A program made the position numbers and the translations under genes. From a virus, in IMG/VR virus record IMGVR_UViG_3300017963_000014, positions 1-64,000 of that record: a stretch of DNA of 64,000 nt; one strand, given 5' to 3'. This document shows positions 1 to 64,000 of this stretch, piece after piece; the stretch's first letter is position 1; each line of letters starts with the position of its first letter. Below the pieces are notes generated by a model that saw only the letters and a program-made list of their open reading frames with translations, had not been told where the DNA came from and made no database searches.

Positions 1-386
1 AGCTCGGCCGCGAACGAGACCTTCTCGCCCGCGTCCCGCGCCCGGGTCTCCGCGGCGAAGATCCGGAGGCTCTCCTCGAGCGGGACGTCCGCCGCGTGCC
101 TCTCGTCCCGCTTGACCCGCTTCCGAACGACTCGGACCTCCGGGGGGCGGCAGGACTCGGCGCCAGCCTTTAGGACGGCCTTCCGGAGCGCCTCGCGGTC
201 GAACGTCTCGACCCTCTCCTCCGGGACGACGACGACCGGCTTGACCCGCGCGCCCTTGAGTAGGCTCTCGTCCAGGAGGAGGTCCGGGTTCTCGACGAAG
301 TCGAGGAGGACCTCGACGTGCCGGTCGACCGGGAGCTCGACGAACCGCTCGCGCGGCCGCGCGGGGCTAGACCTCAGCGTCTTCAC
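1..386 (-). CDS. Partial gene (runs off window), SbcD/Mre11 C-terminal-domain-like protein
   Basis: Not in the ORF track. Hand translation from GTG at 386 (GGAGG 6 nt upstream): MKTLRSSPARPRERFVELPV...LKGARVKPVVVVPEERVETFDREALRKAVLKAGAE...VPLEESLRIFAAET, open to position 1. Confidence 0.6.
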   Translation of the reverse strand, partial: MKTLRSSPARPRERFVELPVDRHVEVLLDFVENPDLLLDESLLKGARVKPVVVVPEERVETFDREALRKAVLKAGAESCRPPEVRVVRKRVKRDERHAADVPLEESLRIFAAETRARDAGEKVSFAAE

Positions 387-669
387 GGAGGACCTCCAGG
401 AGTTCCGCGAACTCCTCGCGGACGACGGCGCCGACGCGCTTCAGGGCGTCGGATAGGGTCTCGCCCTCGTTCACGGAGACGGTCGAGCCGCAGCCGACCT
501 CGAGCGACTCGTACTTCGCGAGCCGGACCTTCCGCGAGACCTGCGCCCAGACCCGGTCGCCGCCGTCCCGCCGAACCTCGACCTCGAGCTTCTCCGGGGG
601 TCTCCGCTGTATACCGCTCCCCCCGGGGGGAGGGACGAGGTTCTCGGGTCGTAGCTTCTTCTCCGCCAT
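367..669 (-). CDS. Hypothetical protein (100 aa)
   Basis: GC3-rich coding pattern; starts 2 nt after the upstream stop codon. Confidence 0.7.
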   Translation of the reverse strand: MAEKKLRPENLVPPPGGSGIQRRPPEKLEVEVRRDGGDRVWAQVSRKVRLAKYESLEVGCGSTVSVNEGETLSDALKRVGAVVREEFAELLEVLREDAEV

Positions 670-671
670 CC

Positions 672-1418
672 CTAGACCTCCGCGAGGACGACGCCCTTCG
701 GCGAGCGGGCCTCCCCGAAGTCGACATGGATCGAGGAGCCGACGACGGTCACCCGGTCGAGCTCCTGGTGGTGGTGAACGTGCCCCGCGTAGACCCGGAG
801 GACCCGAGGGTCCTCGAGGAGCGCCCGCGGGATCGAGGTCCCGACGTCCCGCTGCGTAACGTCGTCCGGACCCCGCTTCGCCCCCGGGACCTCGAGGTGC
901 GCGAACGCGAGCGCCCGCGCCTTCCGGGGGAGCCCGGACTCGAGCTCCCCCTCCGCGAAGCGATCGAGGAAGCTCTGAGAGTCCTCGAACGCCCCCCGCT
1001 CCCGCGCCTCCGCCTCCGTCACGAACGGGAGGAGGAAGAGAAACTCGCTCCCCTCCCGGACGAGTATCGGTTCCGTAATAACCTCGACCCGCCCCGCGAA
1101 CGCGTCGTCCCGCGCGAGCGCCTCGAGCGGTAGGAGCGAGTTCACGCTACCCCGCGTCCGCTTGTCGTGGTTCCCCGCGAGGACGTAGATCGAGGAAACC
1201 CTCCGCGAGAGCGGGAGGAGGTACTCGAGCGCGACCGCGTACGCCTCCGGCCCCGGACTCGGGGAGTTGAAGAGGTCCCCGAGGTCGACGTAGACGTCCG
1301 GTTTCAGCTCCGACGCGAGCTCGACGATCGCCCGGAGGACCCGCGCCTGCTCCTCGAGCCGCGCGACGCCGTCCGAGACGAGCCCGAGGTGCTTGTCGCC
1401 CGTTACGAGGACCCTCAC
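672..1418 (-). CDS. sbcD: SbcD/Mre11-like metallophosphoesterase nuclease (catalytic domain only)
   Basis: Motifs GDKH, GDLF, GNHD, AH and GHVH; GSS..VDFGE...KG C-terminus. Confidence 0.85.
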   Translation of the reverse strand: MRVLVTGDKHLGLVSDGVARLEEQARVLRAIVELASELKPDVYVDLGDLFNSPSPGPEAYAVALEYLLPLSRRVSSIYVLAGNHDKRTRGSVNSLLPLEALARDDAFAGRVEVITEPILVREGSEFLFLLPFVTEAEARERGAFEDSQSFLDRFAEGELESGLPRKARALAFAHLEVPGAKRGPDDVTQRDVGTSIPRALLEDPRVLRVYAGHVHHHQELDRVTVVGSSIHVDFGEARSPKGVVLAEV

Positions 1419-4644: not shown

Positions 4645-7512
4645 CTACCCCGCTCTATCCCGGATGCGCTTCGCCCGCGGAGCGCTACGGAGCTCCTCGA
4701 GGTCGGCCTCGAGGAGGATATCGCCCCTGTTCTCCCGGATCCGCGCGACCGCCTTCGAGACCCGCTTCGGGTCCGCGAGCCAGGTCCGGTAGCGGTCGAC
4801 GAGCTTCCGCCGACGAGCGCGACCCTTGATGAGCCACTTCGACCAGTCGATCACGGGGAAGCAGACCTCGAGGATCCGCTGCGAGGCGGGGAAGATCACG
4901 CGGTCCCAGTAGTACTCGGCGTCGTACGCGATCCCTCCGGCGGCGTCCTCGAAGTCACCCCGCGTTACGCCGGAGAGGTTCGGCTTCGTCCCGGTTACGA
5001 CGTACTCGACCTTCATTCCGACGTAGTACTCCCGCCCGGTCTCCCGAATCTCGGCCGCGAGCTTGACGTGCAGCGGCGTCGTCTTGTACCTCTCCGGGTC
5101 CTTCGATATCCCCTTCCCGATCGAGACCTCGTCGACGGAGAGCTCGCCCTCGGCGCAGCGTCGGAACTCCGGCTCGACGACCCCGCGCTCGATCTCGTCG
5201 CCCGAGAGTCCCTCCGTAAGGATCGCGTCCAGGACCCGCTGCTGGAGGCGGCGAGTCATCCCGGAGCAGTCGCTCCGCATCACCTCGAGGCCCTTAACCT
5301 CGACGTGATCCGTCTTCCCCCCCTTGTGGAGGAGCATCCTCCCGGCGTACCGCTTCTTAACGACGAAGAAGATCCGGTCGTAGACGTCCTCGAACTCGAG
5401 TTCGACCCGATTCCAGTCGAGGTTGCAGTTGAAGCCCCGGAGCTCCTCGAGGTAGCGCTCCTGGCAGTACGCGACGAAGCGGTTCCCGGCGTCGAGTATC
5501 TCCTCGATTCGGGCATCCTCGGAGGGCCAGGTCTTACCGGTCGGCGCGAGCTGAACGAAGACCGAGTCGGTGTCACCGTAGAGAACCGCGAACCCGTTCT
5601 CCTTCGCGTACCGCTCCGTTAGGCGGATGAAGTACCGCCCGCTGAGCGTGATCGCCTCCGCGAGCTCGGTGTCGTAGTACCGGGAGCGGGCGTTACCCAT
5701 GTCGCCGTAGAAGCTCAGCCCGAGGCGCTTGAACGAGTACGCGAGCCGGTAGTAGAGGAGGTAAAGGTCGTCCTGCGTCGTCCCGACCTCCTCGAGCCGC
5801 TTCCCCTGAAGGTCCGTGTACTTCTTCCGCCGCTCGAGCGTCCGGACGAACATCTGCGAGATATACCCCTCGCGGTCCCTCCGGAAGGTCGCGCCGCCCT
5901 TCTCGAGCGTCCCCCCGCCCTCGGTCTCGACCTCGACGAGGGGGCAGCGACAGAGCGAGTCCGGTCCGTTCTCCCGGAGGAACGCCTCGCGATCCTCGAG
6001 CTTGACGATCGTCTCGGGCGAGATGTTAAACGCTCGAACCATCGACGGGTAGAGACTCTTGAAATCTAAAGCCGCCACGTTCTCGTGCATCCCGACGACG
6101 GGGGGGAATACGTAGGCGCCCTCGTACTTCTCGGGCTCGGCGGAGGACCAGTACCGGGTCCGGAAGTGCTCCCCCTCCTTGTACCCCTTCTTTAGGAGGA
6201 GCTGGTCGATCTTCGTCGAGATGTTCCAGTCGTTCGCGAAGCCGTTCGCGATCCGGCAGAAGATCTGCTCGATCGAGACGAACCCCGTAAACTCCTCGAG
6301 CTTCCGGAGAATCCTCGCGTCGTACCGGTTATACTCCTCTAACAATTCGGGCTCGTACCGGTAGAGGTTGATAAACTTCGGTACCACCCCCGGGCGACGC
6401 TCACGGAAGGTCGTACGCCAGTCGATCTTCTGCATCTTCAGGACGCGCTCCCCGATCGAGTCGAGGGCGTAGGAGACGGCGTCCGCGCCCGCCCGCGTAT
6501 AATGCCGCTTGAAGACCGGTAGCGGGTCGGCGAAGAGGTGGTACCGCCAGTCGATCCAGATCCGGTGCTTCCGGAAGCGGTAGAAGATAACGGGAAAGTC
6601 GAATCCGAAACCGTTCCACGCGGCGAGGACGTCGTAGCGCTCGACGCACTCTCGCTTAAAGCGAAGGAGCATCTCCCGCTCGGCGGCGTCCGTCTCCTCC
6701 TCGAGTCGAAGGAACCCCGCGTCCGAGGGGTCGGAGTCGAAGCGGTCGCCCTCCCAGGCGATCGAGAGTATCCGGTTCTGCTCCTTCCTCTCGAACCCCC
6801 CGACGGTATCGTCGGTCTCGATGTCGAGAAACCCCATCCGGTACCGAGCCTGGATTTTTAAATCTACGTCCGTCAGGAACCGCTGCTTCGGCGTTAGGTC
6901 CGCCTCGAGAGGCTCAAGACCCTTCCGACGACACCACTCGACCGCCTCGTGAACAGGCTCCCACCGGTCGCGATCTCGGGGGAAGCGGAGCGCGCCCGGT
7001 CGCTCGCCGAGGAAGTAGGGGGTCGCCCAGCTAGAGGCGCGGTCGGGGTCCCCGACGTTCCGGAAGATCCGCTTGTGATCGATCTTCGGAACCCTCCGCG
7101 AGACGTAGACCCGTACGAACCTCTCGGGGTAGAGCGCGTCGGGCTCGACCCGCCGGGCGTGCCGACGGCAGAGCCAGTCCCAGCTCTCGCTCGGGATCCT
7201 CTCGAACTCCTCCCGCCGGAGGAGGAAGTACCACTCGAAGGGGTGAACCTCCTTAACCCGCCTCCCCGTCGCGGGGTCGCGGCGGAGGAGGACGACGTCC
7301 TCGCCCTCGGACCAGCCGTGGTAGTACTCCTTATCGGAGAAAAAGAACCGCTGGTCCTTCATCTCCTCGAAGTCGGCCGCGCTCTCGAGGTCGACCTCGT
7401 CGCGCGAGTCCCGAACCTCCTTCGAGTCGATCTCCTGTACGTAGAACTTCCGCTTCTCCGCGCCCGCGCCGAAGTCCCCTGCGATCCCCTGAGTGTCGGC
7501 GTCCCCGATCAG
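4645..7512 (-). CDS. polB: Family B DNA polymerase with 3'-5' exonuclease
   Basis: ExoI LDIETD, ExoII WNGFGFD, ExoIII YNRYD, motif A DFKSLYPS, motif B KRLGLSFYG, motif C YGDTDS, KKRY. Start uncertain: CTG 7512 or ATG 7362. Confidence 0.93.
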   Translation of the reverse strand: MIGDADTQGIAGDFGAGAEKRKFYVQEIDSKEVRDSRDEVDLESAADFEEMKDQRFFFSDKEYYHGWSEGEDVVLLRRDPATGRRVKEVHPFEWYFLLRREEFERIPSESWDWLCRRHARRVEPDALYPERFVRVYVSRRVPKIDHKRIFRNVGDPDRASSWATPYFLGERPGALRFPRDRDRWEPVHEAVEWCRRKGLEPLEADLTPKQRFLTDVDLKIQARYRMGFLDIETDDTVGGFERKEQNRILSIAWEGDRFDSDPSDAGFLRLEEETDAAEREMLLRFKRECVERYDVLAAWNGFGFDFPVIFYRFRKHRIWIDWRYHLFADPLPVFKRHYTRAGADAVSYALDSIGERVLKMQKIDWRTTFRERRPGVVPKFINLYRYEPELLEEYNRYDARILRKLEEFTGFVSIEQIFCRIANGFANDWNISTKIDQLLLKKGYKEGEHFRTRYWSSAEPEKYEGAYVFPPVVGMHENVAALDFKSLYPSMVRAFNISPETIVKLEDREAFLRENGPDSLCRCPLVEVETEGGGTLEKGGATFRRDREGYISQMFVRTLERRKKYTDLQGKRLEEVGTTQDDLYLLYYRLAYSFKRLGLSFYGDMGNARSRYYDTELAEAITLSGRYFIRLTERYAKENGFAVLYGDTDSVFVQLAPTGKTWPSEDARIEEILDAGNRFVAYCQERYLEELRGFNCNLDWNRVELEFEDVYDRIFFVVKKRYAGRMLLHKGGKTDHVEVKGLEVMRSDCSGMTRRLQQRVLDAILTEGLSGDEIERGVVEPEFRRCAEGELSVDEVSIGKGISKDPERYKTTPLHVKLAAEIRETGREYYVGMKVEYVVTGTKPNLSGVTRGDFEDAAGGIAYDAEYYWDRVIFPASQRILEVCFPVIDWSKWLIKGRARRRKLVDRYRTWLADPKRVSKAVARIRENRGDILLEADLEELRSAPRAKRIRDRAG

Positions 7513-8108
7513 GGACGAGCCGGTTCGGAACCCCTCCCCCGGGGGAGGAGCGCCCTCCGCCAGTTCTCGGCCTCCGTCTCGAGGCGGGTCCACTTCCGGA
7601 GGGTCGCGTTCGGGTGCCGGAGGAGCGTCGCCTCCGCCGTCGTCCCCTCGACCGTCCTCCGGAGCCCGAAGTCGCTTAACCCGAGGGCGACGCCCGCCGC
7701 CCTCCCGAGGACGAGGACCGTCCGGAGGTTCGGGAGTTCGAGTAGTTCCCTTCGAAGGTACCGTTCGGCGCACGTCTCAAGCTCCATTGGGGTCGGGGCG
7801 CGGTTCCCGGGGGTCGCGCACTTCAGGGCGTTCGTCGCGTAGCATCGCCCGAGGTCGAGACCCGAGCGGTCGGCGAGCTCGAGGAAGGCCCGGGTCGAAC
7901 CAGTTAAGAGTACGGGTTCCCCGCCCCGCCTCCGGGTCTCCGCGAGGAGGGGGAGGAGGAAGCAGCCCTCGACCCCGTCCACGGCCCGCCGCGAGGGGTT
8001 GATCCCGACGACCACGACCTCCGCGTCGTCGGGTCCGACGCCGACGCAGCGGGGGAGGCCGGAGGAACCGAGGGTACAGGCTCGGCAGGGGCGGGGGTCG
8101 CACCTCAT
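7509..8108 (-). CDS. Uracil-DNA glycosylase superfamily protein (Fe-S type)
   Basis: CRAC, G.GP.DA.VVVVGINP, YATNALKC, NRAPTPMELETC, LVLGRAA, HP. Confidence 0.85.
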   Translation of the reverse strand: MRCDPRPCRACTLGSSGLPRCVGVGPDDAEVVVVGINPSRRAVDGVEGCFLLPLLAETRRRGGEPVLLTGSTRAFLELADRSGLDLGRCYATNALKCATPGNRAPTPMELETCAERYLRRELLELPNLRTVLVLGRAAGVALGLSDFGLRRTVEGTTAEATLLRHPNATLRKWTRLETEAENWRRALLPRGRGSEPARP

Positions 8109-8653
8109 CGTCCCCCGGTCTCGAGGTGCAGGCTCCCGACGAGGAGCGAGAGCCGCGTCCCCCCGAACCGGTCGGGTAGCCCGGAGACCGCCGCACCGGC
8201 GGCTGCGAGGTTCCCGAGGAGGTCGAGCGGGAGGAGCGGGGCGAGGCGCTCCGAGCGCATGTACGCGACGACCTCGAGGTAGGGGCGCCGGAGGAGCTGG
8301 ATCGCGGTCGGGCAGGCGGGCGGGGGGAGGACCGATACGATCCGACGCGAGCTCGGCTCCTCCCTCCCGATACGCGCCCTGAGATTCCCCGCGTGCCGGA
8401 CGTAGTCCGAAGCCTCCGTCCGGAAGCGCTCCGCGAACCCGACCCCGGGCTCGAGGAGGTCGAGGGCACGTAGGATCGACGGGAGGTCCTCGAAGTCTAG
8501 GACCCGCGGGACGATGTACCTAAACTCGACCCCGCAGTTCTCGACGTAAGTACGCCCATCTACGCAGACGGACTTCCCCGAGGCCCGAAGCTCGACCTCC
8601 TTCCCCCCCGCGAGGACGAGGAGGTCGCGAGCGAGGTCGAAGTTAGTAATCAT
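8105..8653 (-). CDS. Minimal thymidylate-synthase (ThyA)-fold enzyme, predicted dCMP-modifying
   Basis: SSRR, PAC (catalytic Cys), Q, YMRS, LPLD and GSLH align by eye to ThyA DSRR/PC/Q/YQRS/LPFN/GDTH. Confidence 0.7.
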   Translation of the reverse strand: MITNFDLARDLLVLAGGKEVELRASGKSVCVDGRTYVENCGVEFRYIVPRVLDFEDLPSILRALDLLEPGVGFAERFRTEASDYVRHAGNLRARIGREEPSSRRIVSVLPPPACPTAIQLLRRPYLEVVAYMRSERLAPLLPLDLLGNLAAAGAAVSGLPDRFGGTRLSLLVGSLHLETGGR

Positions 8654-9657
8654 CGATTACGCCCCCGACCCTCGGCGAGCTTCTCGGCGTTCCCCCACTC
8701 GTGTGTCGCCGGGGGATCCCCCCGCTCGAGCGCCTTGAGTAACCCGAAGTATTCCCGACGAATCTCCCGCTCGAGGTCGACCTCGGGAAGATCGAGCCGC
8801 TCGCGAACCGCCGCGACCTCCTCGAGGTCGTGTACGAAGTCCCCGAGGTAATCGAGGTCGGGTCGGTAGACCGGGGAGATCGGGACGTCGGAGACGAAGC
8901 GGACGATATCGACGATCTGTCCGTAAGGAAGCCAGCGACCGGAGGCGGCGGGGACTCGACCGGAGAGCCGGACCTCGACCGCGCGGCGGACGAGGAGCGA
9001 TATCCAGGAGTGCGGCGTAACCTCCTTAACGTTCGCGGGGCTAAGGGTGATAAAGGGCTCCCGCTCGTAGAGTCCGGCGGCGCACTTCAGGCAGTCGGCG
9101 ACGCAGGAGTCGCCGTCGCGGATCCCGCCGAAGCCAAACGAGGGGTAGACCTGCAGGAGGAGCTCCGGTTCCCGGGCGAAGGCGTCGACCGCGAAGAGCC
9201 GCCCGGCGAGCTTCGTCAGACCGTAGCGAGTCCGGGGGTTCGCGGGGGTTCGAGACATCGAGATCGGCTTCGCGAGTCCGTAGTCGTCGGGCGAGAGCTC
9301 GGAGGCGGTCGCGAGGAAGACCGTGTAGATCCTCCGCTCCGCTAGAATCCGCGCGAGATCGCGGGGAGCGGCGGCGTTGCAACTCCAGGTCTCCTCCGCG
9401 AGAGTCTCGCAGCGGGTCGTCCCGACGATCGCCCCGGAGTGAACGAAGACGTCCGGCTTCGGGTCGAGGGCGGCTAGCCACTCGAGGTAGCCCTCGCAGC
9501 GGAAGTCCGGCTCGAACTCGCCGGTCGAGGGACTACGCCAGAGTGCGAATAGACGACGATCGGTCGGAGGCTCGAGGCGCTCCCAGCCGAGGGAGGAGAA
9601 CTCGCGGTCGATCTCGCTACCTAGCATCCCGCTCGTACCGGTTACGACGTACCTCAT
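8650..9657 (-). CDS. NAD(P)-dependent NDP-sugar epimerase/reductase (extended SDR, RmlD/GalE-like)
   Basis: TGTSGMLG, PDVFVHSGA, catalytic YGLTK. Confidence 0.85.
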   Translation of the reverse strand: MRYVVTGTSGMLGSEIDREFSSLGWERLEPPTDRRLFALWRSPSTGEFEPDFRCEGYLEWLAALDPKPDVFVHSGAIVGTTRCETLAEETWSCNAAAPRDLARILAERRIYTVFLATASELSPDDYGLAKPISMSRTPANPRTRYGLTKLAGRLFAVDAFAREPELLLQVYPSFGFGGIRDGDSCVADCLKCAAGLYEREPFITLSPANVKEVTPHSWISLLVRRAVEVRLSGRVPAASGRWLPYGQIVDIVRFVSDVPISPVYRPDLDYLGDFVHDLEEVAAVRERLDLPEVDLEREIRREYFGLLKALERGDPPATHEWGNAEKLAEGRGRNR

Positions 9658-10142
9658 CTTCGGAAACCCTCCTCCCCGTTAACGTAGACGACGTCGACTA
9701 CACCGCCGACCCAGGCGAAGACCTCGTCGAACGCGAGAAACTCGGCGTTAAGTCGCCCGTATTCGATAACCTCCCCCCGTCGCTCGATCCGGTTCCGCGC
9801 GGTCTCGAGCGAACTCGTAACGCGGTAGATCTGCTCGACCTCCTCGAGCTGCTTCGCCCGCGCGGCCGGGTTCGCTAGAAACGCCGGGATCGGTCGCTCG
9901 AAGAGCTTGGCGAAGACGAGGGTCGAGACCCAGCCGCGGTCGGCGACGAGGTCGACCCGGGGCGCGAGCTGCTCGAGTAACGAGGCGTGCGCTACGTACC
10001 CCCCGATCCGCGTCTCCTCCGAGTCGAGGCGGAGCCGAACCTTCGCGAGGTCCTCGACGTACGGGATCCCGAGCCGCCGCGCGAGGAGGCGGGCGAACGT
10101 CGTCTTTCCGACCCCGTTCGGACCCTCGACGAGGTGAAGCAT
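9654..10142 (-). CDS. dNMP kinase (thymidylate-kinase-like)
   Basis: P-loop EGPNGVGKTT, DRGWVS, RIERRG lid. Confidence 0.8.
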   Translation of the reverse strand: MLHLVEGPNGVGKTTFARLLARRLGIPYVEDLAKVRLRLDSEETRIGGYVAHASLLEQLAPRVDLVADRGWVSTLVFAKLFERPIPAFLANPAARAKQLEEVEQIYRVTSSLETARNRIERRGEVIEYGRLNAEFLAFDEVFAWVGGVVDVVYVNGEEGFRR

Positions 10143-11242
10143 CAGAGCGCCCTCGGCGCGACCAAGTTCCCGGAGGCTCCTCGGGTAAATCCCGCGAACT
10201 GAGCCTCGTACTCGTTCCGCTCTACGATACTCTCCGGGGTATACCCGAGGAGGAAGCGGTCGCGGGTCGTGAGTCGGAAGTCCTCGGGTCGGTCCTCGCC
10301 CGCGGTCGGGATCCGGATCCCGAGCTGCGCCGCGATCGTCTCGCGGTCGGAACAGCTCTCGTTGAACTCCGCGTACTCGTAGTCGAGCTCGGGGTTCCCC
10401 GGGGCGCTTCGGACCGGGTTTCGACCGCAGCTACGGAAGAGGCAGCCGAAGGCCTCCGAGATCGCGTGAGCCCGGTGGTAACAGCAGGCGCCTACGAAGT
10501 CGCAGCGTGGGCGGAGATACGCGGCGAGGAGCGGGAAGGCGTCGGACTTCGCGAGGCGGTCGCGGAGGAGCCAGGCGACGGCGACGGTGTCCTCCGCCTC
10601 GGAGAAGGTCATCCGACGGGCGCAGAGGTTCTTAAGCGCCGCGTAGTTAACGGAGCAGACGAAGCGGTGAACGACCGAGATCGGGAGCGCCGTCCTCGCC
10701 TCCTGCCAGCTCCCGCGCCCGATCTCGACGATCCTCCGGTACACGAACTTCGCCTCCCTCGCGAGGGCTACGAGGTCCGAGAGTTTACCCGCGCTCCGGA
10801 ACGTCGCCTCGTGGAAGCGAAACGCGATGTCTAGGTGGTTGTTATCGCGGGTCCCCATCGACGCCGCGACGAACCCGAGGCGGGCGCGAACGATCTGGTC
10901 GAACGCCCACCTCGAGAGATTCTCGACCGAGAACGTAAACTTCGGCGCCTCGAGCGCGAGCGGTAGCGCCTGCCCCGCGAGAACCGCCCGAACGACCGCC
11001 TCCCGCGACTCGGGCGCGGCGTCCTCCCAGCGGTCGAGGGAGGAGGAGCTCCAAGTCCCCCAGGTCGCGGTCGCCATGCAGTACATCGCCTTATACGGGT
11101 TCACCGGTCCGTCGAGGAGGTCGACGCGAATCCCCTCGACCCCGCGGTAGAAGCGGGTCTCGAACGGCGGGGCGGAGGAGGGGGCGGTCCCCATCAGTTC
11201 GCGGAGGCGGGCTAGTTCGGCGACGCGGTTCTCGGTACTCAT
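10142..11242 (-). CDS. Divergent ThyX-fold flavoenzyme
   Basis: LE..KFTFSVENLSR....QIVRAR...TR, EARTALP, VNYAALKNLCARR, Cys-rich tail. Start moved to ATG 11242 (ATGA overlap, GGAGG upstream). Confidence 0.8.
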   Translation of the reverse strand: MSTENRVAELARLRELMGTAPSSAPPFETRFYRGVEGIRVDLLDGPVNPYKAMYCMATATWGTWSSSSLDRWEDAAPESREAVVRAVLAGQALPLALEAPKFTFSVENLSRWAFDQIVRARLGFVAASMGTRDNNHLDIAFRFHEATFRSAGKLSDLVALAREAKFVYRRIVEIGRGSWQEARTALPISVVHRFVCSVNYAALKNLCARRMTFSEAEDTVAVAWLLRDRLAKSDAFPLLAAYLRPRCDFVGACCYHRAHAISEAFGCLFRSCGRNPVRSAPGNPELDYEYAEFNESCSDRETIAAQLGIRIPTAGEDRPEDFRLTTRDRFLLGYTPESIVERNEYEAQFAGFTRGASGNLVAPRAL

Positions 11243-12216
11243 CTCTTCTTCCTCCCTTCGGCTAACTCGAGGACCACCGCGAGCGCCTCGCGCGGCCCGG
11301 GGACGCGGACGGCGCCGACGAGCTCTACCCCGGCGTTCGCCTCGCCCTCTACGAGGACGACCGGGACGCCGGCGGCGAGGACCTCGCGCGCGACCGCGGG
11401 GTCGTCCTCGACGACCGCGACGGTCCCGGGGAAGTCCCGGAGGATCCGCCGGTGTTTCTCCCGGTCGAAGAGGACGGCGTCCGCGCGGAGGGCGGAGCGG
11501 TTGAGCCACTCGAGCGTATCGGCGTAGATCCGGGATACCCTCCAGTAGGGGCGAGCGGAGAGGACGACCGCGGTTAGACCGGCGGCGCGGAGCCCGTCTA
11601 AGAGCTCCCGCGCCCCCTCCCGAACCCCCTGCTCACGCTTCGCCCCGCTCTCGCGGTAGCGGTCCTTTAAGTTCTGGTACCCGAGCGCCCCGAGCTCCCG
11701 TCGGAGCGCGGCGGTCGAGGAGAACACGAACTCGCCGGGAACCTCCCAGTCCTCGACGTCGAGGCGGGCCCAGTCAAGGAAGCAGCGGGGGTAGTCGTTA
11801 AGGACGCCGTCTAGGTCGACGGCGACGACCGGGTCCTCGGGGGAGAGCGCGCGGAGGCGGGCCTCCATCGCGTAGCGGTACTCGACGACCTCGCTCTTCC
11901 GCTCGAACTCCTCGAGGATCTCCCCGGGGGAGAACCCCCAGACGTTCGCGAGCCCGAGGAGGAACTTAAGGCAGTCGACCCACTCCTCGAGGACGTTCCC
12001 GCGGACGACCGGAGTAGTCCGCCGGTGGTGCATCTTCCAGGAGGTCTCGCCGAGTAGCTCGTGAAGCTCCCCCTCGAGGTGTAGGACGAAGTCCTTCGAC
12101 CACGCGACGCGCTCCGCCGGGGATAGCCGCGCGATCTCGTAGCCGAGGTCCGAGAAGAACCGCTCGTTGAACCGCCTCTGCCGCGCGAGGATCCCCTCGA
12201 GGGAGGTAGCCTTCAC
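11239..12216 (-). CDS. Fusion of all-alpha dNTP pyrophosphatase (dimeric dUTPase/dCTPase-like) and HAD 5'-nucleotidase
   Basis: N-terminal EGELHELLGETSWK...LEEWVDCLKF; C-terminal VDLDGVL, LSAR, K, VEDD. Start moved to GTG 12216 (GTGA overlap). Confidence 0.8.
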   Translation of the reverse strand: MKATSLEGILARQRRFNERFFSDLGYEIARLSPAERVAWSKDFVLHLEGELHELLGETSWKMHHRRTTPVVRGNVLEEWVDCLKFLLGLANVWGFSPGEILEEFERKSEVVEYRYAMEARLRALSPEDPVVAVDLDGVLNDYPRCFLDWARLDVEDWEVPGEFVFSSTAALRRELGALGYQNLKDRYRESGAKREQGVREGARELLDGLRAAGLTAVVLSARPYWRVSRIYADTLEWLNRSALRADAVLFDREKHRRILRDFPGTVAVVEDDPAVAREVLAAGVPVVLVEGEANAGVELVGAVRVPGPREALAVVLELAEGRKKR

Positions 12217-13136
12217 GAGAGAACCCCCGCGACGTCGTGTAACCGTATCCGGTGGTCCCACCTAGCGAACCTCCCGACGTGCCGGACGAGCCCCGCGTAC
12301 TCGACCTCCGACCGCGGCTCCCCCCGAACCTGGAGGCGGAGCGGCCCGACGAAGTTCGTATCGAAGACGTCCTCGCAGAACCCCGGCGCGAGGACCTCCG
12401 CGGGGTCGCGGTTAAACTCGTAGACGAACCCCTCCCCCTCCGGGAGGAAGGTGACGCGATCGAAGGGGACGCGCGGGTTAGAGACGTAGAGGTAGCGGAG
12501 ACCGGCGGAGGCGGCGTCCCGGACGGGGTCGGCCCAGGCGCGGGCGGCCCCGAGGAACCACTTCGGGCCGGCGTCCCAGGTCCGCTCGAGCTTAGCCGGC
12601 GTTAGCGAGTCGAAGACGGGCGCGGGGAGCGTGTTGACGACCTCCGAGACCGGCAACTTACTAACCCCGTCGAGCTCGACGTCTACCCGTCGCTGAAGTA
12701 TCCAGGGCGCGATGGACGTGACGCGCGCACGGAGTAGCTCGGAACGGACCGTTAGCGCGCGCTCGAGCGCCCGCGTAAGCTCCTCTACCGAGGTACGGAA
12801 GCAGCGGAGGACGCCGGGGGTACCGGAGGAGACCGCGGATCTCGGCGCCCGGCTAGGGTCCCGTCCGCTCCGCCGGAGGTACTCCCGCCGCTCGAGCGGC
12901 GTCGGGTCGGAAGTAACACCGGAGTCGGTCCAGAACCCGAAGCGGACCTCCTCGACCTCGCTCGATAGCCCGAGGTCCTCGAGGACGCGCCCGAGCGCGA
13001 GGGACTCCCAGAGGTAGGAGGGGGCGAGTCGTCGGAGGAGGACGGAACCGCCGAAGATCTCGCCAACGCAGGGGACGCGGAGGAGGTACGCCGCGAGGAG
13101 GCCGACGGGTCCGGCGCCGAGGACGAGTCGACTCAT
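12213..13136 (-). CDS. FAD-dependent enzyme, UDP-galactopyranose mutase (Glf)/HemY-like
   Basis: GAGPVG dinucleotide fold, VVNTLP, PFDRVT, C-terminal GRFARW. Confidence 0.65.
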   Translation of the reverse strand: MSRLVLGAGPVGLLAAYLLRVPCVGEIFGGSVLLRRLAPSYLWESLALGRVLEDLGLSSEVEEVRFGFWTDSGVTSDPTPLERREYLRRSGRDPSRAPRSAVSSGTPGVLRCFRTSVEELTRALERALTVRSELLRARVTSIAPWILQRRVDVELDGVSKLPVSEVVNTLPAPVFDSLTPAKLERTWDAGPKWFLGAARAWADPVRDAASAGLRYLYVSNPRVPFDRVTFLPEGEGFVYEFNRDPAEVLAPGFCEDVFDTNFVGPLRLQVRGEPRSEVEYAGLVRHVGRFARWDHRIRLHDVAGVLS

Positions 13137-17965: not shown

Positions 17966-19132
17966 CTAGGCCCGCCTACGGGCGCCCCGGAGCCGGAGAC
18001 GGGCGCGGGGGCGCTCGAGCTCTCCCGGGGCGCGGAGGGCGGCTAGGAGCGCCTCCTCCGGCGCGTCCCCGGGGTCGGTCCCGCGGGGCATCGGCCGGAA
18101 CTCGGCCCGGGTCGAGGCCCCGAGGGCGCCGCGGACGGACTCGAAGAGGGTAGCGCCGCCGGCGTCGCCGTCCGCTAGGTGGATGACGCCCGGCGCCCCC
18201 CGGATCCTCGCGGCCTGCCGCGGGTAGAGCCGCGCCCCGAGGACCGCGACGACGTTCCCGAAGGGGACGTCCGAGACCCCGGGGTTCCGGAGGAGGAGCG
18301 CGCGGACCCGCTCGGCGTCGAGGATCCCCTCGACGAGCGCGACCGGGCGGTCGAGGTCGAGGGGGTCGGGGGCCCAGAGGAGGCCGGCGTCCCGCGGTCC
18401 GGCGACGCCGGGGCAGTAGCGGCCCTTCTCGCGGGAGGGGACGCGGAAGATCGAGCGGACGAACCAGTTCGCGGGCTCGCCGTCCTCGCCCGCGATAGGA
18501 AAGATAATTCCGGGTGCGGTTCTCTTTAGGGTTCGGCCGAAGCGGTCGCTAGCTCGGAGGCTCCGGACGGCGCGGACCCCGAGCTCGAGCGCCCGCGCGA
18601 GCGGGAGCCCGCGACGCTCGGCGAACTCCCGGAACTCCGGGGGCGCGTCCGCGAGCGGGGCGGAGGGGGGCCAGGCGAGGGGGAGGAACTCCGGCCTCGC
18701 GAGGACCGCCTCGCGCCGGCGGAGGACCGCCTCGCCCGCGCGGTCGGCGTCGATCGCCTCCTCGTCGAGGTACTCCCGGCGGAGGAACCGGGCGGCGTCC
18801 CGCCGCTCCTCGGAAGTCGGGGGGCGGTCCCAGGCGTCCGAGCGGACGCGGGCGACGAGGTCGAGGAAGTCGAGCCCGCGGAGCCCGGCCTCGCCGGGGT
18901 GGCTCCAGCAGTTGAAGCGCCCGAGGAGCGAGCCCCCGTCCCGCGCCGGGACGTCCTCGACGCAGACGTGGAAGCTCGGGTTCGCGTCGACGTGCGCGGG
19001 GTCGGGGCACGGGCAGTAGGCGTCCGACCCGACGCGATCGACGACCTCGAGCCCGAGGTCCTCGAGGACCTCCTCGAGGTCGAGCCGCCGGAGGAGGCGC
19101 TGCGTCCGCTCGAGTTCCCGCTTCCGGCCCAC
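17966..19132 (-). CDS. dnaG: DnaG-like primase (zinc-binding domain plus TOPRIM)
   Basis: CPDPAH.D.NPSF...CWS zinc domain, IIFPI, VEGILD, DGDAGG, DPGD. Confidence 0.8.
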   Translation of the reverse strand: MGRKRELERTQRLLRRLDLEEVLEDLGLEVVDRVGSDAYCPCPDPAHVDANPSFHVCVEDVPARDGGSLLGRFNCWSHPGEAGLRGLDFLDLVARVRSDAWDRPPTSEERRDAARFLRREYLDEEAIDADRAGEAVLRRREAVLARPEFLPLAWPPSAPLADAPPEFREFAERRGLPLARALELGVRAVRSLRASDRFGRTLKRTAPGIIFPIAGEDGEPANWFVRSIFRVPSREKGRYCPGVAGPRDAGLLWAPDPLDLDRPVALVEGILDAERVRALLLRNPGVSDVPFGNVVAVLGARLYPRQAARIRGAPGVIHLADGDAGGATLFESVRGALGASTRAEFRPMPRGTDPGDAPEEALLAALRAPGELERPRARLRLRGARRRA

Positions 19133-25935: not shown

Positions 25936-25963
25936 CTCTACGGGGGTCTATCTCGAGATGAGT

Positions 25964-26428: not shown

Positions 26429-26430
26429 CG

Positions 26431-27053: not shown

Positions 27054-27122
27054 CGGAAACTCTTTCCGACTCCGTAGAGGGTAACCCGCCTAACTAAATT
27101 CGGGCGGGGTTATGCGCTCGCG

Positions 27123-27962: not shown

Positions 27963-28030
27963 CTTCTCGCCCTCTCGTTAGGGGGGTTTCTAGGGTTTAC
28001 TTCCGCCGTTCGCCGCGCGCGCCTACGTCG

Positions 28031-58525: not shown

Positions 58526-59719
58526 CTACTCGATCCCGATGTTGATGCCCTTAACGACCGCGGTGACCTCCTCGATCTGGACCGTGTACTTCGTCGTGAT
58601 CGCGAACTGGTTAACGCCCGCGTAGATCTCGCGCGCGGTCTCGATCCGGATGTCCCGGCCGATCCCCATGATAAGATTCTGGAAATTGGCCAGCGCGATC
58701 TGCGCGAGCGTCCGGTACGTAACCTTGTACGGACCCGCGACGGCCATCCCCTGCGCGGCGACGGTCGTGATCTCGCCCGTCGTCCGGTCGACCGTGTAGT
58801 CCGTCCCCTCGACGTACGGGGTAACCGGGGTCGAGCCGAGGGTAACGGGGGTGATGATCACCTCGTCCGAGATCGGACCGTACCGGAGCGACTGCGTGTC
58901 GGGCGCGGCGCCGAAGGTCACGTGCTCGACGACCTTCGGATCGGGGTCGAGGAGCGGGACCGGGACCAGCGGCACGCCGTAGACCGGGATCGAGTTCGAG
59001 GAGGTCATCGCGTTGTCGCCCGCGGTCGTCGCGCGCGAGGCGACCTTCTCCCTCCAGTTCTGCTCGATATCGAGGGCGAGCAGGAACCGGAGGTCCCGGC
59101 GCGTGCGGCGGAACTTGACCGGCATCGCCTTGATCATCCCGGAGAAGACCTTCAGCGACGCGTTCTCCCCCTCCGCGTCGTAGATATTCCCGGCGTCCAT
59201 CAGCCGCCACCAGCCGTCGAAGAGCGCGAGGAAGGTATCCTTGATCACCTTGTCCGTCGCGCCGCCGTCGAACAGGTCGTTCTCGATCTGGGCGACCCCG
59301 AGGGTGTCGCCGTTGACCATCCCCTCCTCCATATCGTTCGCGGTCTGCGTCGCCATCAGCCGGACGACGGTGTCCTCGACCGCCTCGCCCTCGATATTCA
59401 GCTCGGCGAAGTTGTCCGAGATCTCGAACGGGGTCATGATCTCGCGCGGCGTGAGGACGACCTTCGAGGTCGTTACCCCCCGGCGGATACCGGGGTCACG
59501 GGCCTCCTCCTTCGGGACGCTCACGCGGCGACCGACGCCGATCTTGTCGATCTGGAGGTTCTCCGGACGGAACCGGACGACGCGGACGGCGCCGCGTAGC
59601 TCCGTGACGTCGATCACGAAGTCGATGAACTGATCCGACTGCTCGTCGTTCAGCTTCCCGCCGGCGGCAAGGTCGTTGCTGGTGATAATCGCTCTCTGGA
59701 CGAGTTCCTCGTTCGTCAT
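58526..59719 (-). CDS. Major capsid protein (HK97 fold) with insertion domain
   Basis: GGKLNDEQSDQFID, IDKIG.G.R, NIEG...ED, .NGDT, DGW, NLIMGI.RDIRIE. Confidence 0.9.
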   Translation of the reverse strand: MTNEELVQRAIITSNDLAAGGKLNDEQSDQFIDFVIDVTELRGAVRVVRFRPENLQIDKIGVGRRVSVPKEEARDPGIRRGVTTSKVVLTPREIMTPFEISDNFAELNIEGEAVEDTVVRLMATQTANDMEEGMVNGDTLGVAQIENDLFDGGATDKVIKDTFLALFDGWWRLMDAGNIYDAEGENASLKVFSGMIKAMPVKFRRTRRDLRFLLALDIEQNWREKVASRATTAGDNAMTSSNSIPVYGVPLVPVPLLDPDPKVVEHVTFGAAPDTQSLRYGPISDEVIITPVTLGSTPVTPYVEGTDYTVDRTTGEITTVAAQGMAVAGPYKVTYRTLAQIALANFQNLIMGIGRDIRIETAREIYAGVNQFAITTKYTVQIEEVTAVVKGINIGIE

Positions 59720-61560: not shown

Positions 61561-61573
61561 CGTTACTACCTCC

Positions 61574-62578
61574 TTAACTCTCCGGAACTACTACAGTTCG
61601 ACATCTTCCGTGATACGGCGGTAACGCCAACCCGGCGTTCGCTAGGTCGCCGCGCTCCGCGAGCTCGCGGGCCTCGGCCGCGGTACGCCAGCCGGCGATC
61701 GACTTCACGTCCTCCGGGTCCTCGGCCGAGACGAGCCGGTCGACGAGCGAGCGGCCCTCGGAGACGGCGAAGGTCCGGTTATGCATAAAGCGACAAATTT
61801 CCGAGGTCCTTTCGTCTAAAACCGCCTCTATTCTGTACCTTACGAAGCCCCCGGCCTCGAACGCGGAGACCGAGCCGAAGGCGAGCCCCCGCGTCCGGAC
61901 GTCGCCCGCTAGCTGCGCGAAGTACGCCTCGGGCGAGCCGCGGTAGGTCCCGGGGACGGCGGCCATCGGGAAGGTCCCGTTAACCGCGCCGCGGAGGATC
62001 TGCCCTACCTCGAGCCGCCCGAGTCCGCGGAGGGCGGCCTCGCGCTCGACCGTCGCGAGGATCGTCCGCGAGAGGTGCCGCCCCCAGTACTCGCCGATCC
62101 AGTAGACGCCCTGGTTCGAGAGCGACCCGATCTCCCGGATGTTACCCCGGGTCAGCGTCAGCTCGATCCTTCGACCGGACTCGCCCGCGAGGTCCCGGAC
62201 CCGGCGCTTCGCCCCGAGGTAGAACGCCCCGAGGGCGATCCCGAGCGAGGTCAGGGCGGAGGAGGTGTCGCGCTCGCGCATCCGCGCGTCGGTCCTCCCG
62301 AGGAGCCGCTCGACCTCCGGGATCGAGACCGCCTCCGCCGGGAGGTCGAGGAGCTCGTCGACGAGGATCGGGTCGAGGTCGCCGCGCCAGTCGTCGAGGA
62401 GCTCGCGCGAGAGCCTCCGCTCGGCCGCGGTCGCGCGGTCCTCGACCTTCGCGACCTCCCGCCCGACCCGCTCCTCGACTGCGTCGACGAGGGCGAAGAG
62501 CTCCTCGTCCCCGAGTCCCCGGAGGAAATCCGGAGTAACGGACGCGGCGAAGCGGGGGTCGAGGTCGGGGAGGAGCAT
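61574..62578 (-). CDS. Head morphogenesis protein (Mu gpF/SPP1 gp7 family)
   Basis: AVLDERTSEICRFMH, PPYHGRCRT. Confidence 0.9.
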   Translation of the reverse strand: MLLPDLDPRFAASVTPDFLRGLGDEELFALVDAVEERVGREVAKVEDRATAAERRLSRELLDDWRGDLDPILVDELLDLPAEAVSIPEVERLLGRTDARMRERDTSSALTSLGIALGAFYLGAKRRVRDLAGESGRRIELTLTRGNIREIGSLSNQGVYWIGEYWGRHLSRTILATVEREAALRGLGRLEVGQILRGAVNGTFPMAAVPGTYRGSPEAYFAQLAGDVRTRGLAFGSVSAFEAGGFVRYRIEAVLDERTSEICRFMHNRTFAVSEGRSLVDRLVSAEDPEDVKSIAGWRTAAEARELAERGDLANAGLALPPYHGRCRTVVVPES

Positions 62579-64000
62579 CTAGGCGTCCCCCTCCCCCTCG
62601 CGGAGGTCGAGCGCCGGCGGGACGAAGCCACCGAAGCGCCGGGCGGCCTCCGCCCGGAGGAGCTCGGCGAGCCGCTCGAGCGGCTCGTCCGCGCGATCGA
62701 CCGTTCCGGCGGGCTCGAGGTCGCGGTCGCGCTCGCCCTCGGTCGCGACCTGAAGCCCCGCCCGCCCCTGCGACGTCGGTTCCCCCCCGCCGGGGGCGGC
62801 GGAGGCGGAGTTCGTCTTCATGATCTCCGCGAGCGTAAGCGAGAAGGGCTTGTCCGGGTCGAGCAGCTTCGGGTCGACCTCGCCGAGGTCCTCGTTCACG
62901 ATCCGGGAGAGAATCTTCCGCGCGATCCGCGGGGTCGCCCCACCGGTCTTCTCCCCGCCCGCGAGGATCCGAACGAGATCCGCGTTCTCCGCGACGTTCG
63001 GCCCGTTCGAGCGGAAGACGGAGTTAACGATATTCAGCCGGAGGAGGACGTCCCGCGTGAAGAACCGGTCGACCTTGTCCCGCTCCGGCTCGAATACCTG
63101 CTCGTCCCCGAGCCTCCTCGAGGCGTCGACGACGTCCCCGGAGTAGTCCTCGGCCTTCCCTACGAATAGCGAGGGGAAGCGCCAGACCCGGCGGACGGAC
63201 TCGTCGTTCGCCGCCTTGTAGTTGACGAAGAGCGCGTCCGTGTGCTGCTCCTTCGTCAGCGGCGTTATATCGATCTTCATCGAGCCGGGGTCGCGCATTC
63301 CCTCCATCACCGGCTCGGCCTCGATAAGGAGGAACTTCGAGTAGTTGTCGTCCCCCTGGATCGCCGCCTCGACGAACTCGTCGATACGCTCGATCGACTC
63401 GTCGTCGAGCTTCCCGTTCGATACCGAGATCGCGAGCGACGGGACGTTGTTGTTCTTGAACGTCGTGTAGTTGATCTCCTCCGACGCGCGGGAGCCCATG
63501 ATCGCGAAGAGGTTCCCGATATAGCGCGGGAGCCCGTAGGGGGAGCGCGGGCAGTAGATCCGCTGGTGTCTAACCGGGTTCGCCGCGTCCGCGACGGGGA
63601 AGCCGACGAAGGAGTTCGTCCGGACGACGACGCTCCCGTTCGAGAGCGTAAAGCGCGTCGCCCGCTCCTTGTTCCCCTCCGTGAGCTGCTCCCTCGTTAC
63701 GACCTCGCCCGTCCGGGAGGAGATCAGGCGGGGGTCGCCGAGCTCCTTGAACCAGACCGCGCGCCCGCCCTCGAGGACCTGTACGTACCTCCGGAACCGC
63801 TTCCTCCGGAGGTGCTCCTCCCTCCGGTACCGGACCTCGACCGGGAGCTGCTTCCGGACCGCCGCCTCGCCCTCCCCCGGCTCGGGGGGAGCGAGCTCGC
63901 CCGGCTCCCCCGCCGGGGGCGGGGGCGGGAAGGAGACCTCCTTTACGACGCGGTAGTCGACGTACTCCGTCGGCTCGTCGTCCGGCTTCGTGATCCGCAT
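62579..64000 (-). CDS. Portal protein (probably 5'-truncated by the window edge)
   Basis: YGLPRYI, FKNNNVP, D..F..Y...N...V...WR.P...VG; directly upstream of the gpF-like gene. Confidence 0.8.
   Translation of the reverse strand: MRITKPDDEPTEYVDYRVVKEVSFPPPPPAGEPGELAPPEPGEGEAAVRKQLPVEVRYRREEHLRRKRFRRYVQVLEGGRAVWFKELGDPRLISSRTGEVVTREQLTEGNKERATRFTLSNGSVVVRTNSFVGFPVADAANPVRHQRIYCPRSPYGLPRYIGNLFAIMGSRASEEINYTTFKNNNVPSLAISVSNGKLDDESIERIDEFVEAAIQGDDNYSKFLLIEAEPVMEGMRDPGSMKIDITPLTKEQHTDALFVNYKAANDESVRRVWRFPSLFVGKAEDYSGDVVDASRRLGDEQVFEPERDKVDRFFTRDVLLRLNIVNSVFRSNGPNVAENADLVRILAGGEKTGGATPRIARKILSRIVNEDLGEVDPKLLDPDKPFSLTLAEIMKTNSASAAPGGGEPTSQGRAGLQVATEGERDRDLEPAGTVDRADEPLERLAELLRAEAARRFGGFVPPALDLREGEGDA

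Follow-up and report, generated by a model that had tools for sequence, protein, structure and literature searches.

Lineage-specific depletion of the CA/TG step throughout the genome of an uncultured phage

About two thirds of all CA/TG steps are lost from both strands of the phage genome described here, protein changes included, and only a single phage lineage shows this bias. In the window, that is, the whole 64,000-nt stretch of DNA that was analysed, the symmetrised CA/TG odds ratio was 0.319, with 2,192 CA+TG observed versus 6,862 expected, whereas the other symmetrised ratios were 1.37 for CG, 0.96 for TA and 1.70 for GA/TC. The whole genome yielded a CA/TG ratio of 0.309, and no 4-kb bin was exempt (0.21-0.39). 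Fold depletion was therefore ~3-fold overall, reaching ~7-fold at free sites, and leaves ~3,300 CA/TG in the genome, or ~1 per 31 bp. We favor, with moderate confidence, sustained selection against the CA/TG step on double-stranded DNA, the likeliest agent being a host DNA-targeting system.

The window covers the initial 64 kb of a phage genome that is complete at 101,796 bp and bears a 123-bp direct terminal repeat (DTR), and the bias runs unchanged through to the genome end. The phage is uncultured and originates from sediment, the samples being sediment and seawater metagenomes; contigs from two public runs were identical. The features relevant to the extent of the deficit are the following:

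1-64000, no strand: genome-wide depletion of the CA/TG step, from the odds ratios of window, genome and 4-kb bins
841-1140, minus strand: first example stretch, within a calcineurin-like phosphoesterase gene (672-1418; Pfam Metallophos)
18001-18300, minus strand: second example stretch, within a primase-like gene (17966-19132; PHROG DNA primase)

The preliminary description of this DNA had singled out the two example stretches for their few CA+TG, and recounting confirmed it: each holds one CA and three TG, against 30.9 and 24.1 expected in 841-1140 and 18001-18300, respectively. Its remark that survivors are mostly forced by codons also held, as six of these eight belong to Gln, His or Met codons (CAG, CAC, CAG and one GTG in the first stretch; ATG, CAC, CAG and one GTC|ATC junction in the second). 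His, Gln, Met, Trp and Cys codons force 54% of coding CA/TG, and avoidable CA/TG per gene had a median of 0.12 of expectation.

The avoidance had been proposed to cross codon boundaries and to act on DNA rather than on codons, and both proposals were borne out. Odds ratios for CA and TG were 0.33 and 0.75 at codon positions 1-2, 0.21 and 0.21 at positions 2-3, and 0.25 and 0.22 at the 3|1 junction. CA and TG were equally avoided on the coding strand, and the deficit extended to intergenic DNA (0.30), where each segment of at least 60 nt was depleted. A shuffle preserving each protein and the codon usage of each gene predicted 2,817 ± 32 junction CA+TG, of which only 765 were observed (z = -64). 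When the protein was left unchanged and third bases were sampled from the global position-3 composition, 7,454 CA+TG were predicted in total versus 3,094 observed. This short word is therefore under-represented beyond composition, amino acids and codon usage. Moreover, all 16 xCAy contexts were depleted and the eight CA/TG-containing trinucleotide pairs all fall within the nine rarest, which indicates that the avoided unit is the dinucleotide and not longer sites.

The compensating TpA and CpG of the preliminary description were likewise evident, TA being 0.99 versus 0.25-0.61 in GC-rich relatives and CG 1.35 versus ~1.05 in relatives. Across aligned orthologous codons, a loss of 2,613 CA/TG was accompanied by gains of 1,912 CG and 669 TA, so that CG takes up most of the loss and TA just about a quarter. 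Because the density of pyrimidine-purine steps is unchanged (218.7 per kb in the phage; 223.3 and 229.0 in relatives) while CA/TG were removed, the CG and TA excess is arithmetic and carries no separate signal.

Near relatives were found via the family B DNA polymerase gene, and a further stretch allowed comparison with a divergent relative from the same samples:

4645-7773, minus strand: family B DNA polymerase (Pfam DNA_pol_B, 4e-46), 65-72% identical in relatives
49186-49733, minus strand: stretch compared with the co-occurring divergent relative (807-nt contig, ~87% identical)

CA/TG odds ratios ranged from 0.59 to 1.50 across 83 related loci. The 39 loci with GC>0.6 spanned 0.64-1.12 (median 0.93, sd 0.12), which places the 0.31 of the phage five standard deviations under their mean. 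The two fully sequenced near relatives, G001 and G003, scored 0.79 and 0.91, with CA/TG being rather low (0.64-0.93) in the nearest clade, G000-G003. The co-occurring relative is not depleted either, its two segments aligned to 49186-49733 containing 20 and 9 CA+TG versus 8 and 3 in the phage. Elsewhere in this phage family, different extreme purges occur, with AG/CT down to ~0.4 and CG at ~2.3; given these, dinucleotide-level arms races may recur in this phage group.

The depletion is also imprinted on the proteins. Over ~19,000 aligned orthologous codons the phage holds 1,900 CA+TG, as compared with 4,513 and 5,708 in relatives; His, Gln, Met, Cys and Trp are all reduced through asymmetric replacements, and His, Gln and Met lie 35-55% below the orthologues. 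The tolerated changes are His to Arg, Gln to Arg or Glu, Met to Leu, and Trp to Tyr or Phe. Avoidance peaked in the early/ORFan block, which is poorly constrained and in which His, Gln, Met, Cys and Trp together amount to 3.4%, and was lowest in the virion genes, that of the capsid included, the extreme being:

58526-59719, minus strand: major capsid protein gene, with the weakest avoidance in the genome

In this gene avoidable CA/TG rose to 0.37 of expectation, CTG+GTG made up 22% of Leu+Val codons versus ~8% elsewhere, and the His/Gln/Met content of the product was not lowered. The capsid protein has 639 homologues, the best with 77% identity, and recombination rather than translational selection could explain its weaker avoidance. 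A capsid-profile scan of genome contigs for the host yielded only four matches to MAGs, all of them distant and probably mis-binned.

To separate mutation from selection, ~11,000 codons whose amino acid is conserved were classified by which base of the step is synonymously free. Odds ratios in the four configurations were 0.05-0.06 (C3|A1), 0.13-0.18 (T3|G1), 0.11-0.12 (C2A3) and 0.08 (T2G3), against 0.41-0.86 in relatives. Depletion was thus alike whichever base is free, a result that speaks against mutation of one base alone and in favor of selection on the double-stranded step. Two routes suggested earlier are thereby disfavored: RIP-like CA>TA change predicts depletion only where the mutable base is free, and glycosylase-biased TG>CG repair is also a one-base route. 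RIP indices formally point to RIP (TpA/ApT 1.30 and (CpA+TpG)/(ApC+GpT) 0.32, versus 0.51 and 0.82 in G001), but its other hallmarks, namely absorption of the loss by TA, a lowered GC content and nonsense mutations, were not found, as GC content is 0.69 versus 0.70 in G001 and ORFs are intact. A six-frame search of the genome with PF00145 returned no match to a C5-cytosine methyltransferase, and the sole methyltransferase is an N6/N4 (DPPY) enzyme common to relatives. Decay by methylation and deamination was rejected on these grounds together with the depletion of all four configurations.

A broader mutational explanation supposes that both bases of CA/TG are hypermutable and that the genome drifted to a new equilibrium without benefit, for example through changed phage polymerase or repair genes, or through CpA deamination plus T>C correction at TpG. 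A process striking both bases of the step would look identical at compositional equilibrium, where the fate of lost sites hides the route. Besides the RIP-type indices, the phage does encode its own PolB, a UDG-superfamily glycosylase and a dCMP-deaminase-like protein, and the free-site ratio of ~0.12-0.17 resembles that of vertebrate CpG decay. We nevertheless regard this bias as unlikely, since any single route predicts two of the four configurations, which were all equal, and since relatives that are not depleted also carry the polymerase, glycosylase, deaminase and N6/N4 methyltransferase (59-74% identity); the missing C5 methyltransferase, the preserved GC and ORFs, and the small share of the loss absorbed by TA weigh in the same direction. 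Host mimicry, that is, codon usage adapted to a CA/TG-poor host genome, could be anticipated because phage signatures usually track those of their hosts, and depletion is equal or greater in all genes, 18 kb of lineage-specific ORFans among them. However, the most highly expressed genes avoid CA/TG least, the opposite of adaptation to a depleted host, and avoidance at junctions and in intergenic DNA is no effect of codon usage. A survey of >15,000 bacterial genomes, in which TpA was the most depleted dinucleotide and CpG the most dispersed, does not single out CA/TG either (PMC11282364), and we consider mimicry quite improbable. Least credible of all is selection at the RNA level, under which mRNAs would shun CA and UG, for instance because ribonucleases cleave there or translation starts spuriously. 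About 95% of the genes are on the minus strand, so that the genome is read in essentially one direction, and UG occurs in all start codons; yet the reverse-complement pair is depleted equally in every configuration, as predicted for double-stranded DNA and without an RNA-level reason, and depletion is just as strong in the few genes on the plus strand and in the spacers between genes.

The remaining alternative is a constraint imposed by the phage on itself, through the following locus:

7509-13136, minus strand: nucleotide-modification operon (Pfam/PHROG matches)

The operon encodes a UDG-superfamily glycosylase, a 182-aa ORF, an SDR/epimerase, a P-loop kinase, a ThyX-like protein, a dUTPase_2/kinase-like fusion and a 307-aa ORF. 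Installation or replication of its modified base might fail beside A (or G), or the base might not be tolerated there, which would leave CA/TG steps unprotected or badly copied and hence selected against. With a pyrophosphatase, a ThyX-like protein, a kinase and an SDR, the operon does look like a base-replacement pathway; the ThyX-like gene is restricted, among 20 large relatives, to the nearest clade, that of rather low CA/TG; and this explanation, being also selection on the step, passes the four-configuration test. Nonetheless, G001 holds all operon genes, intact and syntenic (46-69% identity), and combines them with a CA/TG of 0.79 and a TA of 0.47. The bias therefore does not co-occur with the pathway, and the earlier attribution of the bias to the operon is not supported. 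G003, with a partial operon, is at 0.91. No comparable deficit was found in 15-50-kb samples of the base-hypermodifying phages T4 (1.08), PhiW-14 (1.33), M6 (1.02) and SPO1 (1.04), and no modification gene peculiar to this phage was recognised. A bulky modified base in CA context, as put forward earlier, may still contribute but is weakened by G001, and we deem the self-imposed constraint rather improbable.

Of the earlier interpretation, action at the DNA level stands, whereas the operon link, RIP-like CA>TA change and TG>CG repair do not; its proposal of escape from something that reads CA/TG is the one most consistent with the data. As the phage is purged and its closest relatives are not, something in the infection cycle appears to read the step. 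Under selection against the step, each CA/TG left would represent a small cost, and the phage would shed steps wherever a synonymous codon, another order of codons, non-coding DNA or a tolerable replacement permits, retaining them where protein function or the efficient translation of highly expressed virion genes demands them. As ~1 CA/TG per 31 bp remains, the phage cannot have escaped a cutter in an all-or-none manner, and any benefit must accrue site by site; an enzyme of the classical restriction type that cuts every CA/TG was discarded for the ~3,300 sites left. Our best guess for the agent is a DNA-targeting defense of the particular host of the phage, with very short recognition and dose-dependent action, such as a frequent-cutting nickase, a restriction-modification-like enzyme or a system drawing guides or spacers beside CA/TG. 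More tentatively, we envisage that either a hitherto undescribed bacterial immunity or the replication or modification chemistry of the phage itself reads the bare step site by site, and that the lineage rewrote its genome and part of its proteome.

If selected, this depletion points to a reader of a 2-bp DNA step. The phage offers a clean natural example for telling selection from mutation bias in dinucleotide composition, and the four-configuration test is applicable to other purged genomes. Methods based on k-mers will mis-bin genomes of this kind, whose composition can also mislead host prediction. We did not find in the full-text literature any non-palindromic dinucleotide purged genome-wide to the point of lowering His, Gln and Met this far. 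To our knowledge, there is neither a CA/TG PAM nor a nickase of the chlorella virus kind for CA, and evasion of Argonaute through composition has not been described.

CpG decay and fungal RIP (CpA>TpA) resemble the present case in that one dinucleotide is strongly depleted and related ones are enriched, and in the RIP indices; unlike them, the present genome encodes no C5 methyltransferase, shows the same behavior at either base of the step, has kept its GC content and ORFs, and makes up for the loss chiefly with CG, less with TA. That phages avoid motifs is already known for restriction sites and PAMs. Avoidance of restriction sites by dsDNA phages (Rusinov et al. 2018, PMC6286503) similarly involves a short word under-represented on both strands beyond composition and codon usage; there too, the bias affects a single phage lineage and alters which synonymous codons are used. 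The known sites are, however, 4-6 bp long, mostly palindromic and eliminated or nearly so, whereas the step purged here is a non-palindromic 2-bp one with ~3,300 copies left, and its purge extends to amino-acid composition. CRISPR PAM depletion in phages, ascribed to selection (Kupczok & Bollback 2014, PMC4246573), shares a 2-3-nt motif, a quantitative per-site cost and the lack of depletion in phages of other hosts, although the reported depletions are modest. Chlorella virus nickases (Nt.CviPII, ^CCD; Nt.CviQII, R^AG, with an AG methyltransferase; PMC3017599) demonstrate that 2-3-nt specificity exists, and as their nicks scale with site number, partial depletion would be useful. They are eukaryotic-virus enzymes with other specificities, and no nickase/methyltransferase pair of this type was found in the phage. 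Finally, the DNA guides of Thermus thermophilus Argonaute (TtAgo) mostly begin with 5'-dC-dA (reviewed in PMC4390867). Although only an analogy, as our samples are sediment and seawater metagenomes and not Thermus habitats, TtAgo exemplifies a prokaryotic DNA interference that is marked by CA, strand-symmetric and dose-dependent.

Dinucleotide counts along the window fully bore out the avoidance of CpA and of its reverse complement TpG (CA/TG) that the preliminary description had read from the sequence, and both odds ratios and codon shuffles placed it far beyond chance. The original hand counts were exact, with 4 CA+TG in each of two 300-nt stretches where 30.9 (841-1140) and 24.1 (18001-18300) are expected, and the claim that most survivors are codon-forced held in these examples, as 6 of the 8 sit in Gln, His or Met codons. 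The deficit extended over all genome bins, codon positions and intergenic DNA.

Odds ratios of CA/TG (symmetrised over both strands) and, by codon position, of CA and TG
Window: CA/TG 0.319
Whole genome: CA/TG 0.309
Each 4-kb bin: CA/TG 0.21-0.39
Codon positions 1-2: CA 0.33, TG 0.75
Codon positions 2-3: CA 0.21, TG 0.21
Codon junction 3|1: CA 0.25, TG 0.22
Intergenic DNA: CA/TG 0.30

Depletion was present in all intergenic segments of at least 60 nt. The nine rarest trinucleotide pairs include all eight with CA/TG (0.25-0.57), and 16 of 16 xCAy contexts fell to 0.11-0.52 of the flanking-dinucleotide prediction, those hit least being forced by Gln codons or lying within AT-rich signals. The avoided unit is therefore the dinucleotide, not a set of longer sites. 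Once dinucleotides are allowed for, the remaining word signals are ordinary: GGCC and CTAG stand at 0.43 and 0.44 of expectation, TCGA and CTCGAG at 1.5 and 2.0, in the window and the whole genome alike, and the GGCC shortfall looks like ordinary avoidance of HaeIII-type sites. About 3,300 CA/TG are still left, i.e. one per 31 bp. A sequencing or assembly artefact, or a misread modified base, was ruled out by the intact and homologous ORFs, the retention of conserved His, Gln, Met and Trp, and the coherent adjustment of codon context.

The complete IMG/VR virus record, whose first 64 kb form the window, spans 101,796 bp (GC 69%), with a 123-bp direct terminal repeat and, by our own gene calls, 119 CDS (~90% coding), nearly all on the minus strand.

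Gene content of the focal phage
Replication and recombination: family B DNA polymerase (PolB), DnaB-like and UvrD-like helicases, primase, RecA-like recombinase, Mre11/Rad50-like pair, RuvC-like resolvase
Nucleotide metabolism: class II ribonucleotide reductase, dCMP-deaminase-like protein, N6/N4 (DPPY) methyltransferase
Virion and lysis: portal, prohead protease, capsid protein, amidase endolysin with peptidoglycan-binding domain
Upstream of PolB: the nucleotide-modification cluster (7509-13136) of the preliminary description
98,588-99,430 of the complete genome (G000), outside the window, minus strand: position of the N6/N4 DNA methyltransferase listed above (PF01555, 1.9e-22; DPPY motif)

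The peptidoglycan amidase endolysin indicates a bacterial host; no tRNA genes were found in the window. The public runs in which it occurs come labelled as metagenomes of sediment and seawater; the contigs of runs X1 and X2 are identical, so they provide no independent second sighting, and the two are probably a single data set filed twice. Against the phage collection, neither megablast with 20 kb nor tblastn with the ThyX-like protein returned a match, and the closest capsid homologues, in Logan contigs, are 77% identical. Among cultured viruses, PolB (window 4645-7773) finds its nearest matches in haloarchaeal tailed viruses and cyanomyophages, with an identity of only ~25%. In the near relative G003 (25,698-30,071, locus L004), the PolB match covers 4,374 nt rather than ~3,070, with piecewise tblastn coverage, which suggests that this polymerase gene carries an insertion, either an intein or a homing element. 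The ThyX-like ORF of the focal phage (455 aa; window 10142-11509) overlaps the upstream pyrophosphatase-fusion ORF (11239-12261) by ~270 nt; its orthologue in G001, the other fully sequenced near relative, is an ATG-started ORF of 388 aa, and the real start in the focal phage probably lies near 11,240 or further downstream.

We set these figures beside those of 83 related loci, recovered from IMG/VR scans with PolB and with a capsid profile and carrying capsids 44-80% identical. Their CA/TG odds ratios ranged from 0.59 to 1.50; in the 39 with GC >0.6 the range was 0.64-1.12, so that the focal value of 0.31 lies five standard deviations lower, and TA stood at 0.25-0.61 versus 0.99 in the focal phage. 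Both near relatives share synteny with the focal phage; CA/TG and TA are 0.79 and 0.47 in G001 (105.9 kb, GC 0.70), and 0.91 and 0.50 in G003 (105.4 kb). A divergent relative co-occurring in the same samples (807-nt contig, ~87% identical) had 20 CA+TG versus 8, and 9 versus 3, in the same segments, and most differences between the two sequences make or remove precisely a CA/TG step. The bias is thus lineage-specific. Two distant members of the capsid family showed distortions of other kinds, even along their contigs: L080 (IMGVR_UViG_3300028840_003621, 13.6 kb, GC 0.48) has AG/CT 0.38-0.48, CG 2.2-2.4, CA/TG 0.6 and AA/TT 1.6, and L048 (IMGVR_UViG_3300009509_000013, 21 kb of 74 kb) has AG/CT ~0.6, CG 1.8 and TA 0.21-0.27. 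Purges confined to single lineages and aimed at different dinucleotides seem to recur within this family.

To apportion the coding deficit, mononucleotide composition predicts ~9,480 CA+TG; with the proteins preserved and third bases sampled from global third-position composition the figure is 7,454, with per-gene codon usage preserved as well it is 5,146, and the actual codon order holds 3,094. This stepwise fall assigns roughly one third of the deficit each to amino-acid sequence, synonymous choice and codon context. The proposed crossing of codon boundaries was evident in four-fold boxes, where codons end in C in 5.9% of cases before an A-starting codon versus 46-71% otherwise, and end in T in 1.0% when the next codon starts with G. 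Two-fold NNY codons took the T form in 28% of cases before A and 1% before G, versus ~4-5% everywhere in G001. His, Gln, Met, Trp or Cys codons force 54% of the remaining coding CA/TG, and avoidable steps fell to a per-gene median of 0.12 of expectation.

The focal proteome is itself reshaped, as revealed by ~19,000 orthologous codons aligned to G001 and G003.

Amino-acid usage, and replacements relative to G001
His: focal 1.0%; G001 1.6%, G003 1.5%
Gln: focal 1.6%; G001 2.4%, G003 2.6%
Met: focal 0.8%; G001 1.7%, G003 1.7%
Cys: focal 0.8-0.9%; G001 1.1%, G003 1.1%
Trp: focal 1.5%; G001 1.8%, G003 1.8%
His>Arg: 35; reverse 7
Gln>Arg: 66; reverse 18
Gln>Glu: 54; reverse 24
Met>Leu: 95; reverse 23
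Trp>Tyr/Phe: 46; reverse 20

These strongly asymmetric replacements track biochemical similarity and point to no particular mutational route. The capsid protein is not depleted in amino-acid composition and hence is no marker for sister lineages. Beyond the window, G001 and G003 lack a block of 18 kb with ~29 early/ORFan genes (G000 67,900-86,300; L103:3900-20000 plus L104:1-2300); it has the lowest CA/TG (0.24), and His, Gln, Met, Cys and Trp make up 3.4% of its residues.

The accompanying claim of compensating TpA and CpG was also upheld, since from G001 to the focal phage CA+TG dropped from 4,513 to 1,900 in aligned codons, while CG rose from 7,236 to 9,148 and TA from 516 to 1,185. Pyrimidine-purine steps were essentially as frequent (218.7 per kb versus 223.3 and 229.0 in the relatives), and only their make-up shifted, from 37-45% to 15% for CA+TG, from 48-58% to 75% for CG and from 5-7% to 10.5% for TA. 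Where C is barred before A, the other three bases substitute roughly by general third-position preference, with no special favour for TA. The gain in CG and TA is arithmetic compensation.

Selection and mutation were then weighed by comparing depletion according to which base of the step is synonymously free, over ~11,000 codons with a conserved amino acid. Under a strand-symmetric process hitting one base, a mutable C (CA>TA; on the other strand TG>TA) would deplete only C free before fixed A and G free after fixed T; a mutable A/T (CA>CG, TG>CG, for instance through T:G correction that is biased) would deplete only the configurations in which A is free behind a fixed C or T is free ahead of a fixed G.

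Odds ratios in the four configurations
C3|A1 (C free, A fixed): focal 0.05-0.06; relatives 0.41-0.75
T3|G1 (T free, G fixed): focal 0.13-0.18; relatives 0.56-0.73
C2A3 (C fixed, A free): focal 0.11-0.12; relatives 0.71-0.86
T2G3 (T fixed, G free): focal 0.08; relatives 0.45-0.60

All four were depleted alike, irrespective of the free base, and a single deamination or repair route therefore cannot account for the pattern; neither the RIP-like CA>TA nor the glycosylase-biased TG>CG route proposed earlier found support. Either both bases are equally hypermutable or the step itself is counter-selected, and we regard such a two-sided mutation bias as unlikely. On the coding strand CA and TG were equally depleted, and plus-strand genes behaved alike, which points to double-stranded DNA and not RNA; together with the depleted junctions and intergenic DNA, this supports the earlier view that avoidance acts on DNA rather than on codons. 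The least avoidance was seen in virion genes, including that of the capsid (avoidable CA/TG 0.37; CTG+GTG 22% of Leu+Val). We read this as translational selection working against the purge, and it suggests that the preferred codons of the host are not CA/TG-free.

A constraint imposed by the phage's own DNA chemistry is, in our judgement, slightly less probable still. The modification operon, previously put forward as the cause, was not supported by comparing relatives with and without it: every gene of the cluster has an intact ORF in G001, in conserved order, yet CA/TG is 0.79 there, and having the operon is thus not enough to bring about the bias. Of 20 large relatives, only those of the nearest clade, G000-G003 (CA/TG 0.31, 0.79, 0.67 and 0.91, respectively), carry the ThyX-like gene, and only G000 and G001 the 182-aa ORF of the cluster. 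Samples of the base-replacing or hypermodified phages T4, PhiW-14, M6 and SPO1 gave CA/TG of 1.02-1.33. The N6/N4 methyltransferase, the dCMP-deaminase-like protein, the UDG-like glycosylase and PolB were discarded as simple causes, all being common to non-depleted relatives; the methyltransferase gene, which is not among our gene calls, sits between RuvC-like and SMC/Rad50-like genes and is ~60% identical to the G001 and G003 copies. No C5 methyltransferase, D12 methyltransferase or TGT/DpdA was found encoded in the focal phage. The search for a focal-specific enzyme in the 18-kb block (genome 68-86 kb) and in the remaining genes peculiar to the focal phage yielded no Pfam, PHROG or NCBIfam match beyond a matrixin-like peptidase and DUF2158; the largest proteins of the block (640, 630 and 350 aa) belong to no family in these databases and have no IMG/VR relatives, and the 640-aa ORFan has no homologue among 5.8 billion proteins. 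Searching genome contigs for a host with the capsid profile retrieved four distant matches, in MAGs bearing the labels archaeon, Myxococcales, Bdellovibrionales and Hyphomicrobiales; CA/TG is normal in all of them, and as host pointers they are uninformative.

The best explanation, to which we give an even chance, is that a putative, probably host-specific reader would select against this step in double-stranded DNA. Since one CA/TG per 31 bp persists, the benefit must accrue per site and not be all-or-none. By analogy only, frequent-cutting nickases with 2-3-nt sites and cognate dinucleotide methyltransferases exist (PMC3017599), PAM-dependent spacer acquisition and interference is a system of the per-site type (PMC4246573), and the DNA guides of Thermus thermophilus Argonaute mostly start with 5'-dC-dA (PMC4390867). 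A survey of >15,000 bacterial genomes found TpA the most depleted and CpG the most variable dinucleotide, without singling out CA/TG (PMC11282364), and our full-text literature searches turned up no phage described as purged of CA/TG. The closest known kind is the avoidance of short words by phages (PMC6286503), from which the present case differs in targeting a non-palindromic dinucleotide, in spanning the whole genome without being complete, and in extending to amino-acid usage.
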